Virus record (IMG/VR): IMGVR_UViG_3300013830_000006
Span: 31,577-95,576 of that record
From: a virus
Taxonomy: Duplodnaviria > Caudoviricetes
Reading direction: 5' to 3' (one strand)
Length of the DNA stretch: 64,000 nucleotides
In this document: positions 3,586 through 35,590 of the stretch, in pieces
How the letters are laid out: every line of letters begins with the position of its first letter
How positions within the stretch are numbered: the first letter of the stretch is position 1
Translations under genes and position numbers: made by a program
Notes under the pieces: model-generated
Seen by the model: the letters and a program-made list of their open reading frames with translations, nothing else
Told to the model about the DNA's origin: nothing
The model's database searches: none

Positions 3586-5259
3586 TTAGCAGTTGTTAAG
3601 CTCAATTGCGCCAAGTGCATTCAATAGTGCAACATGCTTTTCATCTGCGTACCACTCTTTGATATGGTCAATAACTGATTTGGATAACCCATACTGTCTC
3701 ATCTCAGATTCAGACTGAAACAGCCTGTGTATATCAGTTACATGACGCACATCACGTACTACTTTACTTGCAATAACTTTACTGAAACCAGGAATGCTAA
3801 GCATAGTCAATAACTGTATCATCGCTATATTCTTAGCTGCTAAATAAAGTTTGTCAAGTAATTCCTGTGAAACTGATTTAGACTTAGACTCCATCATGCT
3901 GAAGATATCTGTTAACTTAGTTATAGTTCCGCTATTGACAGCTTCGGCTATAAACTTGTCTCCAATACCTTTAACATTAAGAACATCTTTACCGATAATA
4001 AAAGTAAGAAGAGCTATAAGTCTGCCTTTACATTCGTCATTAGTGCATTTTAAATCAGTTGATATCTTTGTTACCTTTTCTCCGCAATAAGGACATACAT
4101 CAGGAAGTCCATGATATCCGTTGCTCTCAATTATCTTTGAGATCTTAGGAATAACATCTGCACTCCGTATGACAGATACTTTAGTACCAACACCTATCTG
4201 ATTACTCTCAACATAAGAAGCATTGTTAAGTGTAACTTTGTTTATGTTAACACCATTAATATTGATAGGCTCAATAACAGCAACCGGTGTTAATCTGCCA
4301 GTCCTGCCTATATTCCATTTGATTGCATCGATAACAGTATCAGAACCAGCCGCCCTAAATTTGTATGCAATACTAAACAACGGTGCATGAGTGTTCCAAC
4401 CAACTACAGAATACAATTCAATGTTGTTCTGCTTGATTACAACACCGTCAATGTCATATGGAAGATCATTTCTTGAAATTCCTATAGCATTGATAGCATT
4501 CATAATCTCTCCAAGTGAATGACATACCTCACCTCCTCTCGGAATATTGAATCCTAATTTCTTAAGTACTTCCATGCACTCATTGTGCTTAAGTTTGGAA
4601 CCTTTAACTTTAACATCCCATGCATAAAACAGCAGATTTCTTTTAGCTGTTACTTCTGGGTCGTCCTGCCTTAAACTACCAGCTGCGTAATTCCTACAGT
4701 TAGAAAACAGGGGCTGCTTGTTAGCTGCTCTGCTTATGTTTGCATCGTAAAATGCTTTCTTAGATACCACTACCTCACCACGTACTACTATTGGTTCAGC
4801 GTATGGAATACGTACAGGCAAGTTACTGATTTTATAAGCATTGGGAGTTACTGATTCGCCGTACATACCGTTACCACGAGTAACGCAACGGATAAGTTCA
4901 CCATGTTCATAAATTAATTCAACTGACAGTCCATCCATCTTGCAGTCGACATAAAACTCATCAGCATCCTTAAGATTCCTAAATCTCTTAAGAAATCTCT
5001 GCATATCGTTTTCATCGAATGCGTTCTCAAGACTATACATCGGATACACATGCTTAGTCTTATGCTCAAAAGCAGCCTCTCCAACTCTCTGAGTAGGTGA
5101 ATTGACAGCAATATCCTTAGTTGAGTCTTCATAATCCTTGACACTCTTATACAGCTGATCGTACTCAGTATCAGGAATAAGAGACTTGTTATTGACATGA
5201 TACTCGTAGCATAACTTATTCAGATAGTCTACTTTCTCAAGATACTCATCATGGGTCAT
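3586..5259 (-). CDS. ligA: NAD-dependent DNA ligase (no BRCT domain)
   Basis: KMDG adenylation motif, TRGNG, VRGEV, DGVVIK, AYKF, GRTGRLTP and a C4 zinc finger. Confidence 0.95.
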   Translation of the reverse strand: MTHDEYLEKVDYLNKLCYEYHVNNKSLIPDTEYDQLYKSVKDYEDSTKDIAVNSPTQRVGEAAFEHKTKHVYPMYSLENAFDENDMQRFLKRFRNLKDADEFYVDCKMDGLSVELIYEHGELIRCVTRGNGMYGESVTPNAYKISNLPVRIPYAEPIVVRGEVVVSKKAFYDANISRAANKQPLFSNCRNYAAGSLRQDDPEVTAKRNLLFYAWDVKVKGSKLKHNECMEVLKKLGFNIPRGGEVCHSLGEIMNAINAIGISRNDLPYDIDGVVIKQNNIELYSVVGWNTHAPLFSIAYKFRAAGSDTVIDAIKWNIGRTGRLTPVAVIEPININGVNINKVTLNNASYVESNQIGVGTKVSVIRSADVIPKISKIIESNGYHGLPDVCPYCGEKVTKISTDLKCTNDECKGRLIALLTFIIGKDVLNVKGIGDKFIAEAVNSGTITKLTDIFSMMESKSKSVSQELLDKLYLAAKNIAMIQLLTMLSIPGFSKVIASKVVRDVRHVTDIHRLFQSESEMRQYGLSKSVIDHIKEWYADEKHVALLNALGAIELNNC

Positions 5260-30270: not shown

Positions 30271-30513
30271 ATCAAAAAACTGATGAACTAAAAAAAAAAA
30301 TAAAACTGCAATTAGCAGTTCGTATAAGACCGGTGAGCTTCTCCTAATTTCTCTAGGATAACTCACCGGCTGTTCTGTTGCCTATATCAGTAGACTTCAC
30401 AGGGCAACCACAATTTCCCTGCTTATACTACTTAGTTCAGCTTCTGGTCCAGGATGCAGAACGCACCCTCCATTTATTTTTCGACGTTGGGATCTACGTC
30501 GGGAACCACCGGA

Positions 30514-30837
30514 CTAGTGGGTCAACGCCTTAGCGCCGACTACCTGTCCGGCTTCGTTCCTCACGTACTCGGATACGCCGAGCACATCGGAACGGGAGCC
30601 GTGGAGGGCAGTCAACACCATTGCGCTTACCACGTAGTAGGTTCCCTCAACGGGATCAGGTAAACCCTGCACCTCGCCGAACGAGGTGGTGTTTACCTTC
30701 ACACCGTCAAGGAGACCCACCTGCGTGGTATTTACAGCGCAGCGGGCGACGACACCGCTAGCCTCGATGGTTACTGACTCCCCAGTCACCTTAAACAAGG
30801 TGATGGCATGGGGAGTCAAGTTAACCAACGTTGCCAT
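30514..30837 (-). CDS. Small GC-rich phage protein (NLTPH-motif family)
   Basis: GGAGG SD; NLTPHAITL and GLPDPVEGTYYVVS pattern seen in phage hypothetical proteins. Confidence 0.75.
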   Translation of the reverse strand: MATLVNLTPHAITLFKVTGESVTIEASGVVARCAVNTTQVGLLDGVKVNTTSFGEVQGLPDPVEGTYYVVSAMVLTALHGSRSDVLGVSEYVRNEAGQVVGAKALTH

Positions 30838-30946
30838 TGGTATCCTCCAGCACTTGTGGGAGTGCTGTCCCTTGCATAGTCAAGTCGCGTGCTATGCCAC
30901 GGAATTAAACACGTGAGCTTTTATGGCTCATATTTAATTCATAAAA

Positions 30947-30956
30947 ATAATATATA
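30947..30956 (-). promoter_or_regulatory. Early promoter motif TATATATTAT
   Basis: Repeated motif upstream of 30837. Confidence 0.55.
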
Positions 30957-31028
30957 GACAAAAAAAAGACACCTACATATTTCTATGTAGGTGCCCATAA
31001 CTCAATTATACGTATAACTAGTTAACTA

Positions 31029-31649
31029 TTAACCATGCAGCGATGTAGGATCCGTGAAATCCAAATGACGGGTTTTAGGATTATCCATAAACTCATCAAT
31101 GTAATCACGAGTGCTGCTGAGAGCCAGAGCCTGTTCCGGAGTAAGCTCACGGTCATCAGAATCACTCTTATATTCTACATCAATCTTATTGTCCTTGATA
31201 TCGTCTGCAGTATACCTTATCTTACCAGATTCACATGCGTTCTCAAAAGGATCGTTGATAGGCAACTCTTCAGGTTTAAACCCAAAGCCATCAATTCTCC
31301 CTTCGTTGAACATATCTCTGAGAGGTTCATAAGTAACGATTCCCATCCTCATACAAGGCGGAACACCTCTCATGAGTTCATCCATTGATGAAATCTCACG
31401 ATATTCATCGAAACACTCATAGCCAACAGCAATAGCTTTGAGTTCCTCAGCACTCTGACGAATAGGTTCAACTATATGCGTCATGTACGTCTGGTACCCT
31501 TCTCGCATAGGATCTGCTTCTGATCCAAAGTAACTACGACCACCTGTAGTACTCTCCAGATTATTAAGCAGCATTTGCTGAGAATTGCCACCCAACAAAC
31601 TTCCTAACGAGAATAGATTACTGTTGACACGTAACGTGTCAATTATCAT
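31029..31649 (-). CDS. Conserved jumbo-phage protein (phiKZ gp59-like position)
   Basis: ATG overlaps the TGA of nvRNAP exon 2 (ATGA); GGAGG SD; synteny. Confidence 0.6.
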   Translation of the reverse strand: MIIDTLRVNSNLFSLGSLLGGNSQQMLLNNLESTTGGRSYFGSEADPMREGYQTYMTHIVEPIRQSAEELKAIAVGYECFDEYREISSMDELMRGVPPCMRMGIVTYEPLRDMFNEGRIDGFGFKPEELPINDPFENACESGKIRYTADDIKDNKIDVEYKSDSDDRELTPEQALALSSTRDYIDEFMDNPKTRHLDFTDPTSLHG

Positions 31650-31854
31650 TTTACCTCCTCATAATAATCACTATCTTTGTCATACTCCATATAGTTCTCA
31701 AGCATGACATACATTTGATTGAGCAATGTTACACTATCACTCAATCCTGGATTTCTCACATTGAATAAGAATTGCGACGGATGCGCAGCAGATAATGCTT
31801 CCGCTAACTCATCTTCAAATATGAAAAAGCCATATAACTCGTCACCATCGAAAT
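31646..31854 (-). CDS. nvRNAP beta'-like N-terminal subunit, exon 2 (DFDGDELYGFFIFEDELAEAL...EEVK*)
   Basis: Absent from the ORF track; begins AT TTC GAT GGT GAC and stays open to the TGA at 31646..31648. Confidence 0.9.
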
Positions 31855-32313
31855 GTCGGGATAGATTGTTTATTCAATATTCTAATATTGAACAAACTAC
31901 CCCCCGCCAAACCGTACGTACGACTTTCGCCGTATACGGCTTTCACCGAGTATTTCTACTCGCTAGAATCCTTCTCTCCACTGTTTATTATCACAGTTTC
32001 ACAGATACTATGATTCCTCCGATTTCTCTCAAAAGAGAGACGTCCCTTACGAAATTTCGATCTTCAGTATATGAGTTCTTTTAGGTACTGCATATCCTTC
32101 AGAGCGCATCCAGATTTTTAATCCGTACTCATTTGGTAACATAGACTTATTTTAATCAAATGAGCTAGCCCCTGATGACTAATCCAGTTCGTGTTCCTTA
32201 CCATAAGAACTTCCGCATCTGAGGTCTTTCCACAAAATACATCGCTATATTCTGCTGTCCTCTTCAAATGCTTTGCATTTTTCAGCAAATCGATCGAACT
32301 CAATAAGGCATAC
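31855..32313 (-). mobile_element. ORF-less group II intron, 459 nt
   Basis: 34-nt domain V AAGCCGTATACGGCGAAAGTCGTACGTACGGTTT (31909..31942); domain VI ending CTATCCCGAC; 5' GTATG; EBS1 CTATGTT (32138..32144) complementary to the exon end AACATAG; removal restores NIDFDGD. Confidence 0.92.
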
Positions 32314-33613
32314 CTATGTTTGCCGGTGTAACTATACTTGCATTAATCTCAAGAGTTTCATCTGCTGGATTAGTCTTGAAATTTCTAACATATAGCAACA
32401 TCATTGATCCATAATTTAACGTAGGGTTACGCCCCAGCATTATGGGTATTTTACCTTTAGGTGTTTCATTAATATAATCTCTAAGACACTTCTCAACCAA
32501 TGGATCATATTTCGTTAATGCACTATAGAAAATATTAACTGCTTCATCAACTGTCTTTCCATATCTTTTAACCAGAAAATTCAGGATAATTAACTTAAGA
32601 CAATTTACAATTATACACCATGGGAGCACTATCTCATCCATAGGCATAGCTGAGGTATGTGGGCGAACAACAGTTCTGAATCCATAATGAATTCTTGAAC
32701 CGAATACATGTTTTCTTAATATACCTTTCTTGCCATTAAGTTTAACCTTAACCAAATTATCGTAATAATTCAATATTGTCTGATAAATCTTAAACAAAGC
32801 CTTATCTACGTGAAGATTTCTCTTTCCGCTTTTAACCTGAAATGCTATCGCAGATAAATTAATTACCGCTTCAAGTACTGCTGAAGCAGTTCTATCACTA
32901 TACTTTAACGTTGCTCCATTATCAGTCATCGGATGCAGTGAATTGTGCAATATCGGTAACTTACTGCAAAACATACATTGCCGATATTTCTGACAAAATT
33001 TCACTACATCATCAACTGCTGCTTTAGTAGCTGTAGGCGTATACTTATTAAGCCACACATCCAGATAATAATCAGCATTTTCATAAAACGCTTTAAATCC
33101 TCTGCCTACTATGTATCGCATGAAATCTTCTGGAAGACCTACCTTATAATCCTTATCTTTTTCAAGTTCAGGATTAAGAACGAAATCCAGTAACGATACT
33201 TCTTTCTTGAGAATTCTTATCGTTGTAAATTTCTTCAGTATTGTATACCAGATAGGATGAAGAACTGGTCCCATTTCATCCGGTATGGAGATCCATGCTA
33301 CATGTTCCAACCTCTCAATAAACAGTGATGAGCACTTCGTTCCGCAATCAGGACATACTGCTCCCATTTTGGATACGCCGTGTGTCTTACCGCACTCACA
33401 GGTAGGTACAAAACCCAAGTCACCATCAGTATTACTGATAATAGCTTTATTTGTATCCTCGGTTAAGTTCTTCCCTACTAACGAGCCGTTGTTAATCACC
33501 TTGGCCGTAGCCGAATTTGAATACAACGAATCCAGATCAATCAACTTAGGATTATGTACTAAATCCACATTTTCTTGTTCTGGAGTTATATTCAAAATGT
33601 TTTTAGGATCCAT
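32314..33613 (-). CDS. nvRNAP beta'-like N-terminal subunit (phiKZ gp55-like), exon 1; spliced product 502 aa
   Basis: CECG...CPDC zinc ribbon, GKKGILRKHVFGSR, LGRNPTL; ends AAC ATA G just before the catalytic motif. Confidence 0.9.
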
Positions 33614-33985: not shown

Positions 33986-35590
33986 TTAATGGAAGAATGC
34001 AGTAAACGGTGTGTAGTCATTACCGTATACAGCACCACCATTAACCCTTGCAGAATACTGTCCATAATCTGCAAGATCGTCAAACGTAACGAATTCGCTG
34101 AAGGATTTGTTAAAGTTGAGATCCGTAAGATTCTGAGCAATAGCTACAAGCAGATGTGCAGGAAGAACCACAACATCAGTTCTATACAGCATCTTAGTGG
34201 TAGACTCAACAGCCTTGAGCTCATTCATTCTATCCCTAAGGCTCTCCTTCTTGAACAGAAGTCCCTCGAGCTCAGCTGCCCTAGCAGGAGTCTTGGAATA
34301 CTCCATCAGGAAGTCAATAAGTGCGGTATCATAGGACTGATTACCGTGCTTAAATGTACCACGATAGAACGGCAGAGTCAGCGAGAACCTATCTGCTGTA
34401 CCGTTTATTGCATATGACACATTTGCAAACTTACTGAACGCATCATAGATTGCACTTATAGTACCATTCCTTGCATCGGTGGCGTAATACTCAATGCCAT
34501 TGATCGATGCTCGACCCTCAGTCACGTCAAGGACGAATACCGGTTTAGTAATGTAACTGATTCTGAACTGATCAAGTTCAGCCTGATTCTTGCAGAACCA
34601 ACGATTGCCTATCTTGCCCTGATTCTGCTGAGAATTATCAGGTATCAGATTACCAATGTTCTGTTTGCCATCATACCTGGCGTATTGATTCCACCAAGCA
34701 CCGCTGGCAATAAACTGACGATTAGCAAGCGCCAGGAACATCGGCATCAGAGATGCTGACGGAACAGTGGCGATGATCTCAGAAATATGAACGAACGGCA
34801 CGAACAGCGTCTCGCTCGGATTCTTACGAACAAAATCTACATACCCAGAAATTGCAACAAACGGAGTTTTCGGCTGGTAGATGTTGCTATAGTAACCCTC
34901 ATCGATCGCGTTATTATTGTTGCCGTGCTTATTCTCGCCAATGTACATGACAAGACTGATGTCATGACGCAGAGGTACAGCGTGCGGACTATACTGATTA
35001 AACACAGTCATAAAATCATCCGGATTATCGCTATAACTGAACTGTGTATTGGACAGATCAGCGGCAGTAATACCGTTTACGTCCTCAGTATTGTTCACGA
35101 CATTGAACAGTCTAATCAGATACTGGTACATCTGACTAACCAGTTCATAGTCCTCCTCCGCAACCACAATAAACTTAATTAACGTGGCCTCAGGATGAGT
35201 TCTGAGAAGTTCATTGTAAGCCGGCTTGTCGTAACGGCTGCAGGGCATTCCGTCTTCAGAAGAACTGCCATTCTCAAAAACAAGAATAACTGCATTCTTA
35301 CCACTAAGGATAGCAACACCGTACTTGGGAACAGTAAGTCTTACAAAAGTGAACTTATCCCCAAAGTCCCTGGCAAAGAACTGCTTAAGCTGCTCCGTAT
35401 ACTTCATCGGTGCAGCGGAGTCGTCAGAAATTGACGCATATCTGCCGACGATCTTAGACAGATTAGGAGCATTCTTCCCATCGTCACGACCAGCCTGGAA
35501 AGTATTGCCCTGAGGAGAGAACTGCTGCTGCTCATCAGTGAATGAAGGTCCAGTAGCTGGATCGTTCTGATCTACTCTTATTTTGGTCAT
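33986..35590 (-). CDS. chmA: Chimallin, major phage-nucleus shell protein (phiKZ gp54-like)
   Basis: Just upstream of the gp55-like gene, early promoter, Gln-rich flexible N-terminus; PLRHDI, QNIGNL and PVFVLDV resemble recalled ChmA segments; aromatic C-terminus. Confidence 0.8.
   Translation of the reverse strand: MTKIRVDQNDPATGPSFTDEQQQFSPQGNTFQAGRDDGKNAPNLSKIVGRYASISDDSAAPMKYTEQLKQFFARDFGDKFTFVRLTVPKYGVAILSGKNAVILVFENGSSSEDGMPCSRYDKPAYNELLRTHPEATLIKFIVVAEEDYELVSQMYQYLIRLFNVVNNTEDVNGITAADLSNTQFSYSDNPDDFMTVFNQYSPHAVPLRHDISLVMYIGENKHGNNNNAIDEGYYSNIYQPKTPFVAISGYVDFVRKNPSETLFVPFVHISEIIATVPSASLMPMFLALANRQFIASGAWWNQYARYDGKQNIGNLIPDNSQQNQGKIGNRWFCKNQAELDQFRISYITKPVFVLDVTEGRASINGIEYYATDARNGTISAIYDAFSKFANVSYAINGTADRFSLTLPFYRGTFKHGNQSYDTALIDFLMEYSKTPARAAELEGLLFKKESLRDRMNELKAVESTTKMLYRTDVVVLPAHLLVAIAQNLTDLNFNKSFSEFVTFDDLADYGQYSARVNGGAVYGNDYTPFTAFFH

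Follow-up and report, generated by a model that had tools for sequence, protein, structure and literature searches.

We found that a 459-nucleotide (nt) intron interrupts the codons of the catalytic site in a non-virion RNA polymerase (nvRNAP) subunit gene of an uncultured cattle-rumen jumbo phage. The intron lies in a 64-kb stretch (the window, to which all coordinates refer unless a locus is named) of the IMG/VR viral contig IMGVR_UViG_3300013830_000006, which comprises 95,576 bases and is estimated to be 36% complete. Positions 32313 to 31855 of the minus strand read as a complete, splicing-competent and unusually small group II intron without an open reading frame (ORF), an interpretation to which we assign a probability of about 0.88. 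An earlier note, made from the letters of the window alone, had placed an ORF-less group II intron here, in the first Asp codon of an NxDFDGD motif, and this placement was borne out by a match to the Rfam family RF00029, by covariation and by a restored reading frame. The gene is arranged as follows:

32314 to 33613, minus strand: exon 1 of the nvRNAP beta' N-terminal gene, which takes in codons 1-433 and the G that opens the Asp434 codon; the intron-binding site IBS1 is formed by its last 7 nt, AACAUAG.
31855 to 32313, minus strand: ORF-less group II intron, 459 nt, from 5' GUAUG to GAC 3', delimited by RF00029, covariation and the joint 31854 to 32314 in two metatranscriptomes.
31646 to 31854, minus strand: exon 2, AT plus 68 codons and a stop (FDGDELYGFF...YYEEVK, then stop), assigned by translation and by PHROG 2987 positions 419-475.

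The ORF as annotated (33613 to 32300, minus strand) encodes 437 residues and ends ...IVTPANIGMPY. The earlier note had observed this stop after ...PANIGMPY, an exon beginning 459 nt further on and a 502-residue joined product reading NIDFDGD, and all three observations were confirmed. Exon 2 opens AT TTC GAT GGT GAC at 31854, and its stop codon overlaps the start of the following gene. Joining 32314 to 31854 gives a coding sequence of 1506 nt and a protein of 502 residues that reads ...PANIDFDGDELYGFF, with the catalytic loop PANIDFDGDE present. The predicted ligated junction is AACAUAG followed by AUUUCGAUGG, in codons AAC AUA G/AU UUC GAU GGU GAC (the slash marks the joint). Comparison with intronless orthologues, which the earlier note had proposed, gave a gapless alignment of the spliced protein across the junction to five uninterrupted homologues (P0006, P0013, P0017, P0024 and P0027), at 45-66% identity. 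Furthermore, the match to PHROG 2987 covers profile positions 5-416, ending at N432 of exon 1, and resumes with positions 419-475 at the F of exon 2; since the profile passes from 416 to 419, the junction needs exactly two residues, I-D. Translation of exon 2 as a separate protein was rejected: it lacks a start codon, no ATG, GTG or TTG ORF of at least 40 residues covers it, and the Mg-binding loop would be broken in two.

The joined form was found in RNA libraries. Six metatranscriptomic runs contain the stretch, and Logan contigs of four of them (X15, X16, X18 and X20) were placed on positions 31300-32900. The joint from 31854 to 32314, which skips exactly 459 nt, occurs in run X15 (a 59-nt contig at depth 5.7) and in run X16 (a 60-nt contig at depth 7.1), with 29-30 nt matching on each side. 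These runs are bovine-gut metatranscriptomes from two different studies. The joined 23-mer was absent from IMG/VR and from all 202 DNA loci examined. No joined form of the window's allele was seen in runs X18 and X20; X20 and X15 contain a second, variant junction, different in 8 letters, which comes from an allele of the L011 type that lacks the group II intron in DNA. These results indicate that precise excision and exon ligation occur in RNA. They support splicing, for which branching, with a lariat, is the presumed route. The gene model is corrected accordingly, the nvRNAP beta' N-terminal subunit being the 502-residue spliced product and not a 437-residue protein without an active site.

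We evaluated the identity of the intron with covariance models. The Infernal check suggested by the earlier note gave a match to Rfam Intron_gpII (RF00029; domains V and VI) at 31944 to 31855 on the minus strand, with 66.7 bits (E 6e-11), where the gathering score is 40. The match terminates exactly on the predicted 3' splice site, where the intron reads ..CCCGAC, and it is the only gathering-level Rfam match in both the 64-kb window and the 95.6-kb contig; no second group II intron and no group I intron was found in the contig. The minimum free energy of the folded intron has a z-score of -6.4 compared with shuffled sequence. On this strand, the intron contains no ORF except an unsupported TTG frame of 61 residues. 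In agreement with the earlier note, it encodes no reverse transcriptase (RT) or maturase: an RT/maturase in domain IV is the hallmark of a mobile group II retroelement, and domain IV here is a 16-nt hairpin.

The structure was derived from an alignment of the window intron with homologous introns at the same codon position, with covariation over 7-9 homologues. The alignment consensus (alifold) has six domains, and 66 of its 100 predicted pairs show compensatory changes. A formal pair count over the seven complete ORF-less members covered 118 pairs in 20 helices, namely, 17 of secondary structure and three tertiary pairings (EBS1-IBS1, in which EBS1 is the exon-binding site, gamma-gamma', and AAGU with exon 2), and took in domains I and III-VI. 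In this count, 96.2% of the alignment cells were paired, compared with 76.0% in shuffled controls and 35-42% with slid partners. Changes on both sides were seen in 75 of the 118 pairs, and none of the 500 shuffles did as well. The elements, all on the minus strand, are the following:

32045 to 32308, minus strand: domain I (intron nt 6-269), closed by CCUU/AAGG; helices 2-11, most pairs compensatory.
32201 to 32205, minus strand: UAUGG, one half of a putative 11-nt-type GAAA tetraloop receptor (zeta); the partner half, CCUAAA, is at 32080-32085.
32145 to 32148, minus strand: AAGU adjoining EBS1, which may pair in a delta-type manner with the start of exon 2 (its first 4 nt read AUUU in the window and ACUU in relatives).
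32138 to 32144, minus strand: EBS1, CUAUGUU, located in the loop that caps a domain I stem and paired over 7 bp with IBS1 AACAUAG (helix 1, 100% of cells paired).
32021 to 32044, minus strand: domain II, a simple hairpin (alifold columns 309-317 with 355-363); three of seven pairs compensatory, four never varying.
32018 to 32020, minus strand: GGA joining domains II and III (J2/3); its first base is gamma, the partner of gamma' (C at 31855, where the intron ends).
31965 to 32017, minus strand: domain III, helices 14-16; its sequence resembles domain III of the phage AR9 intron.
31947 to 31962, minus strand: domain IV, a 16-nt hairpin, CGAGUA GAAA UACUCG, without an ORF; helix 17, six of seven pairs compensatory.
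31909 to 31942, minus strand: domain V, 34 nt, with the AGC catalytic triad, AC bulge and GAAA loop (RF00029 alignment); helix 18 paired at 100%, three pairs compensatory.
31857 to 31906, minus strand: domain VI, with a bulged A at 31862 (eighth nt from the 3' end) as the presumed branch point (RF00029 alignment; helices 19-20).

Exon position -2 varies among A, G and U, and the corresponding EBS1 base varies as U, C and A in nine of nine introns, giving three pair types; thus, where the exon ends AACAUGG or AACAUUG, the loop reads CCAUGUU or CAAUGUU. The gamma-gamma' pair is G-C in four introns and A-U in three, and it is consistent in eight of eight once L026 is added. The AAGU pairing with exon 2 holds in 96% of cells (helix 12) and is almost invariant, so that it gains little from covariation; AAGU next to EBS1 may suit a 3'-exon recognition of the IIA type. 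The UAUGG and CCUAAA halves flank a conserved helix, with the conserved GGAACACGAAC (32187-32197) following the UAUGG half, and both are invariant in all nine homologues and also in the introns of AR9 and L058; by analogy, they would form the receptor that docks the domain V loop. The domain II hairpin comes from the alifold consensus, its region being unpaired in the formal-count structure. The candidate branch A of domain VI is kept in all complete homologues and appears as a bulged UA in the RF00029 alignment. The description that the earlier note gave of a 34-nt domain V with its AGC, GAAA and AC elements, of an A at -8 in domain VI and of a tiny domain IV hairpin agrees with both the RF00029 alignment and the formal pair count. 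Judged by comparative analysis, the 459-nt element is a six-domain group II ribozyme with covarying tertiary pairs.

How might the intron be removed? The nvRNAP gene would be transcribed as a single pre-mRNA, in which the intron folds to its six domains. EBS1 (CUAUGUU) would grip the last 7 nt of exon 1, and the start of exon 2 may be held by the AAGU beside it. Domain V, with its AGC triad and AC bulge, would provide the active site, its GAAA loop being docked on the receptor made up of UAUGG and CCUAAA. From domain VI, the bulged A (A31862) would then attack the 5' splice site, and exon ligation would restore AAC AUA G/AU UUC GAU GGU GAC, from which a 502-residue subunit with an intact Mg-binding loop could be translated. 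Branching at A31862 is the most likely route of splicing. The intron encodes no protein and the contig has none of the RVT_1, GIIM and HNH_3 domains; splicing would thus need no intron-encoded protein, and it would proceed either unaided or with a factor whose gene lies elsewhere.

Several observations weigh against this interpretation. The 5' end is GUAUG, compared with the group II consensus GUGYG. The D1-D4 covariance models of Rfam, whose use the earlier note had also suggested, gave no significant match (the best, group-II-D1D4-3, scored 14.1 bits, E 2.8), and the relatives L022 and L032 likewise had no D1-D4 match at E<=0.01. The 5' half is atypical in that domain I is reduced on its 5' side compared with the IIB introns of the AR9 type, as seen in the alignment with the AR9 and L058 introns. 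A search for an EBS2-IBS2 pairing, in which a 5-bp complement between aligned columns of domain I and the exon stretch from -8 to -25 had to hold in n-1 or more of the sequences, found none. In the RNA libraries that contain the junction, the intron-containing path is deeper than the junction itself (29.5 in X15 and 14.5 in X16). The spliced junction that the earlier note had looked to is present in X15 and X16, but in short contigs; RNA libraries may contain DNA, and an intron-less DNA allele with the same flanks would look identical. Finally, the rest of the contig, where the earlier note had suggested looking for an RT/maturase, contains no RVT_1, GIIM or HNH_3 domain in 95.6 kb, about 36% of the genome, so that a trans-acting maturase may be encoded elsewhere.

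The intron belongs to a family. A protein search returned 50 homologues, of which a few are about 500 residues long and uninterrupted through ANIDFDGDELYGFF (e.g., P0006, 65% identical), and many terminate at one of three places. Rfam group II matches were obtained in seven metagenome DNA loci, and these, together with the cut-off L031, make eight homologous introns, all of which are inserted after the first base of the Asp codon, as in the window:

L003: intron of 449 nt.
L032: intron of 473 nt.
L014: intron of 510 nt.
L018: intron of 456 nt.
L022: intron of 445 nt.
L028: intron of 441 nt.
L026: intron of 1075 nt, carrying an ORF.
L031: intron cut by the contig end.

The ORF-less introns of the family range from 441 to 510 nt, and their 5' ends elsewhere in the family read GUAAG, GGAAG and UUAGG. 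The introns at L022:4307, L028:4639 and L018:3062 start with GGAAG or GUAAG and not with GUGYG, and the remaining core elements are all kept. In L014 (1113-1622), about 38 additional nt separate the end of the Rfam match to domain VI from the true 3' splice site; an enlarged loop of domain VI is the best reading of them, and both gamma' and the branch A at -8 are retained. Group II intron ORFs are normally located in domain IV. The intron of L026 (4247-5321), which occupies the same site and has the 5' end UUAGG, carries a 114-residue HNH_3 endonuclease ORF (4717-5058; PF13392, 30.5 bits) that sits in the domain VI loop, downstream of domain V, and is the only ORF found in the family.

Searches for further members gave little. 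A scan of IMG/VR with the exact domain V string and exon 1 peptide patterns returned nothing, and an alignment-based scan returned distant loci only, at 26-36% identity, with group I introns or none. The 17-mer ATGGTRAGGWACACGAA occurs at 43 loci in IMG/VR and at 120 or more loci in genome_contigs, which is about the number expected by chance (estimated from collection size), and among these loci L058 alone is a real group II intron. L058 (3551-4096, minus strand, of IMGVR_UViG_3300020048_000043, an unrelated 122-kb viral contig) is a 546-nt ORF-less group II intron with the 5' end GUGCG that matches D1D4-5 with 89 bits and RF00029 with 62 bits, and it splits the beta' motif between ...MQTF and HTGG.

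Could a real group II ribozyme at this position be unable to splice alone? In bacteria, group II introns without an ORF often rely on maturases provided in trans, and such a protein could also mobilise the intron by retrohoming. This dependence is unlikely in our view, though it deserves to be taken seriously. About 36% of the genome is at hand, which leaves room for a maturase gene in the remainder, and a trans-maturase was proposed for the Listeria phage LPJP1 in the survey of phage group II introns by Merk, Jones and Eddy (NAR 2025; PMC12350094). On the other hand, the 95.6 kb at hand lack RVT_1 and GIIM, ORF-less introns have been published in jumbo phages for which Table S1 of that survey lists no RT-bearing intron (PALS_2 and Internexus), and the sole ORF of the family is an HNH endonuclease, not an RT.

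The presence or absence of the intron changes between close relatives. In a tree of the host gene, the first interruption site of each homologue is scattered; site A requires at least 11 changes for 14 rows, about as many as with shuffled labels, and the intron-bearing P0005 and the intron-free P0006 are sisters. Other intron-free relatives are L015, L016 and L023. The exon 1 of L011 is 99% identical to that of the window, and this locus lacks the group II intron and has a 269-nt intron of the group I type after DFDG, 10 nt downstream. Similarly, the exon 1 protein encoded by a Logan contig of P0002 shows 100% identity across 99% of the query, and this contig has a larger insert, with an HNH_3 gene, at the DFDG site. 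Between the window and L011, three of the 10 nt between the two intron sites differ, compared with one difference in the next 884 nt and 27 in the 2866 nt upstream, a clustering of differences that looks like co-conversion. The two sites can also be occupied together: in L022 (4307-5060) and L032 (3486-4099), the group II intron is followed by an 11-nt micro-exon (ACTTTGACGGT) and then by a group-I-type intron after DFDG, and a 2436-nt contig of run X18 has the window's own intron plus a 304-nt insert between 31843 and 31844.

Across the clade, three or more further intron sites are found in this same 130-nt part of the gene: after GRNP, near the boundary of N and A as in phiKZ, and after DFDG. 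Introns after DFDG are present in L011 (4313-4580), L012, L013, L017 and L024, and introns after GRNP in L019, L021, L025, L027, L028 (4246-4530) and L026; L020 is also interrupted (1277-1514 and 1649-1874). The inserts of the clade measure 240-290 nt, or about 930-970 nt with an ORF; the 5' exon ends with U and the insert with G. The Rfam group I threshold was reached by the L020 insert only. Elsewhere in the window, a GC-rich island (30300-30990, minus strand; 55-60% GC compared with 32-43% in the flanks) contains a 107-residue ORF (30514-30837; PHROG 30542, function unknown) and has hairpin-rich sequence and T-runs on either side. The window and L011 diverge sharply from about this island.

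Because no RT was seen, because intron states flip between nearest relatives, and because one member carries an HNH endonuclease, spread and loss would take place at the DNA level and not by retrohoming. We infer that the element is maintained and passed on through recombination or homing when phages co-infect a cell. Does the intron also serve the phage? It might delay nvRNAP synthesis and thereby set the timing of middle and late transcription, the checkpoint idea of the earlier note, or, in line with that note's idea of hiding the site from homing endonucleases, it might split the target of the HNH endonuclease that homes the group-I-type intron to the DFDG site. The two intron sites 10 nt apart speak for such a benefit, as does the finding that, of near-identical phages, one (the window) has the group II intron and others have the downstream intron, which may or may not contain an HNH_3 gene (L011 and the P0002 contig). 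An intron endonuclease mediates competition between phiKZ and PhiPA3, according to Birkholz et al. (2024) as relayed in PMC12908238. However, no sign of regulation came out of the comparisons, alleles with both introns (L022, L032 and the X18 contig) and intron-free relatives indicate that the intron is neither required nor exclusive, and the data are explained equally well by a selfish element persisting where its imprecise loss would be lethal. We regard an adaptive role as improbable.

That the element is a dead relic, with the beta' N-terminal subunit made as two pieces or the gene a pseudogene, is very hard to credit: intron-containing contigs are plentiful in the RNA libraries, and the intron has a non-canonical 5' end and a reduced domain I, but the catalytic and recognition elements are all intact and co-varying, exon 2 lacks a start codon, the split would cut through the Mg-binding loop, two RNA libraries contain the exact junction, and the allele occurs across 12 studies.

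The host gene was identified by its exon 1, which matches PHROG 2987 (RNAP beta subunit) with an E-value of 1.5e-81. Among phiKZ proteins, gp55 is the sole match (E 7.5e-22), and among AR9 proteins, the sole match is BI022_gp269, annotated 'non-virion RNAP ... beta' subunit, N-terminus' (E 1.6e-19). The virion RNAP paralogues of phiKZ and AR9 gave no match to exon 1. By these matches, the gene is the orthologue of phiKZ gp55 and AR9 gp269, the non-virion RNAP beta' N-terminal subunit. Two genes upstream of it, a further gene bears on the kind of phage:

33989 to 35590, minus strand: 534-residue protein with a predicted chimallin fold (phage nuclear-shell protein), from an AlphaFold 2 model and a Foldseek search.

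The AlphaFold model of this ORF has a pLDDT of 74.7 and a pTM of 0.77. When it was compared with the Protein Data Bank (PDB) by Foldseek, the top nine matches were all chimallin (201phi2-1 gp105, Goslar and PhiPA3), with E-values of 4e-15 to 6e-12 and TM scores of about 0.6, and the next match had an E-value of 0.01. By sequence, the ORF gave nothing in BLASTP against phiKZ gp54, in phmmer against PDB sequences, or in Pfam, PHROGs and the ESM Atlas, and its identification came through the fold search only. The order of the shell protein gene followed by the nvRNAP beta' N-terminal gene is that of phiKZ gp54-gp55. Going by the structural model, this is a chimallin-encoding jumbo phage, and it is probably nucleus-forming. 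The intron-bearing allele is present in public runs from 12 studies, labelled gut metagenome, bovine gut metagenome or metagenome, and blastn of positions 31600-32600 against 50,697 phage records gave no match.

The earlier note had held that group II introns are rarely reported in phages, a view superseded by the survey of Merk et al. (PMC12350094), which describes 20 curated phage group II introns, most of them in RNAP subunit genes of jumbo phages, and about 9,200 IMG/VR contigs with Rfam hits. Six of the 20 are ORF-less (580-690 nt), four carry homing endonucleases, and GTATG is the splice start of six published phage introns; splicing is stated there as not confirmed experimentally. None of the curated hosts in Table S1 is phiKZ-like. 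The ORF-less IIB introns of that table are those of the Bacillus phage vB_BspM_Internexus (594 nt, RNAP beta'), the Staphylococcus phage PALS_2 (580 nt) and the Listeria phage LPJP1 (625-690 nt). The window intron resembles them in being an ORF-less group II intron in a conserved region of a multisubunit RNAP gene, in its GTATG 5' end and AGC triad, and in having been identified by RF00029 and an intron-less homologue. It differs in its size (459 nt, family 441-510 nt, compared with 580-690 nt) and in matching no Rfam D1-D4 model, whereas the introns of Merk et al. mostly match D1D4-5. It also lies inside the DFDGD codons of a non-virion beta' N-terminal gene, in a chimallin-encoding rumen phage and not in an AR9-like or Firmicutes phage, and its spliced junction is found in RNA libraries, whereas Merk et al. 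report no experimental confirmation of splicing.

The group II intron of AR9/PBS1 (NC_031039 121998..120447) also lies in a jumbo-phage beta' N-terminal gene, that of the virion RNAP, which in addition has a group I intron in its catalytic DYD motif. Its core aligns with the window intron from the epsilon'/lambda region through domain III, with UAUGGUGAGGAACACGAAC in common. On the other hand, the AR9 intron is 1551 nt long, has an endonuclease ORF in domain IV, is inserted after ...RYPIEQYR and not in the DFDGD codons, interrupts the virion paralogue, and has about 100 nt more on the 5' side of domain I than the window family. When the window family was aligned with the introns of AR9 (IIB according to Merk et al.) and L058 (D1D4-5, 89 bits), the alignment extended from the epsilon'/lambda region through domain V, with about 100 nt of 5' domain I missing from the family. 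By this alignment, the core appears most similar to the IIB-type introns of AR9-like jumbo phages.

The orthologous genes are interrupted by introns of the other class. In phiKZ gp55/gp56, a group I intron (RF00028, 75.6 bits) with the HNH gene gp56 is inserted after AAU G of N-A-DFDGD, 3 nt upstream of the window site, and in AR9 gp269/gp270, a group I intron with the HNH gene gp270 follows SGDYDG, which is site B, 10 nt downstream of the window site. The annotated ORFs of phiKZ and AR9 end just before or inside the motif, as in the window. The phiKZ and AR9 elements are group I ribozymes with a homing endonuclease, whereas the window has a group II ribozyme without an ORF. Since group I introns interrupt both genes at or beside this motif, dependence of nvRNAP synthesis on splicing is ordinary for such phages. 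The intron endonuclease gp210 of PhiPA3 provides a further parallel: as far as the work of Birkholz et al. (Science 2024) is conveyed in PMC12908238, alleles with and without the intron compete on co-infection. That system likewise involves a mobile intron within an RNAP gene, in a phage that forms a nucleus; it differs in that the intron is of group I, interrupts a virion RNAP gene and has an active endonuclease, whereas the window intron has no endonuclease.

Taking these comparisons further, one may tentatively picture a miniaturised lineage of group II introns (441-510 nt, reduced domain I, no EBS2 and no RT) that has adopted a group-I-like lifestyle in the chimallin-encoding jumbo phages of the rumen. 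In this picture, which we regard as possible and would not press, splicing without an intron-encoded protein would be helped by the phage nucleus, which keeps transcription and translation apart, spread would occur at the DNA level during co-infection (with an HNH gene in domain VI in some members), and competition with group I introns at sites 3-10 nt apart in the catalytic-loop codons of the essential nvRNAP would extend up to double occupancy with an 11-nt micro-exon.

The kind of element is already known, group II introns in the polymerase genes of jumbo phages having been published in 2025 (PMC12350094), and what our analysis adds beyond that report is a natural RNA-level junction. New features are the very small size of the intron, its presence in a chimallin-encoding phage, its presumed competition with group I introns 10 nt away and the one relative with an HNH gene in domain VI. 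The intron is among the smallest natural bacterial-type group II ribozymes with a complete domain set and is a convenient candidate for structural and self-splicing work; if it splices without protein, it would be of interest to developers of compact ribozyme tools. In its chimallin-encoding host, transcription and translation are presumably separated. Near-identical phages of this population carry different self-splicing introns a few nucleotides apart in one catalytic motif, and they would be useful for studies of intron competition and homing.

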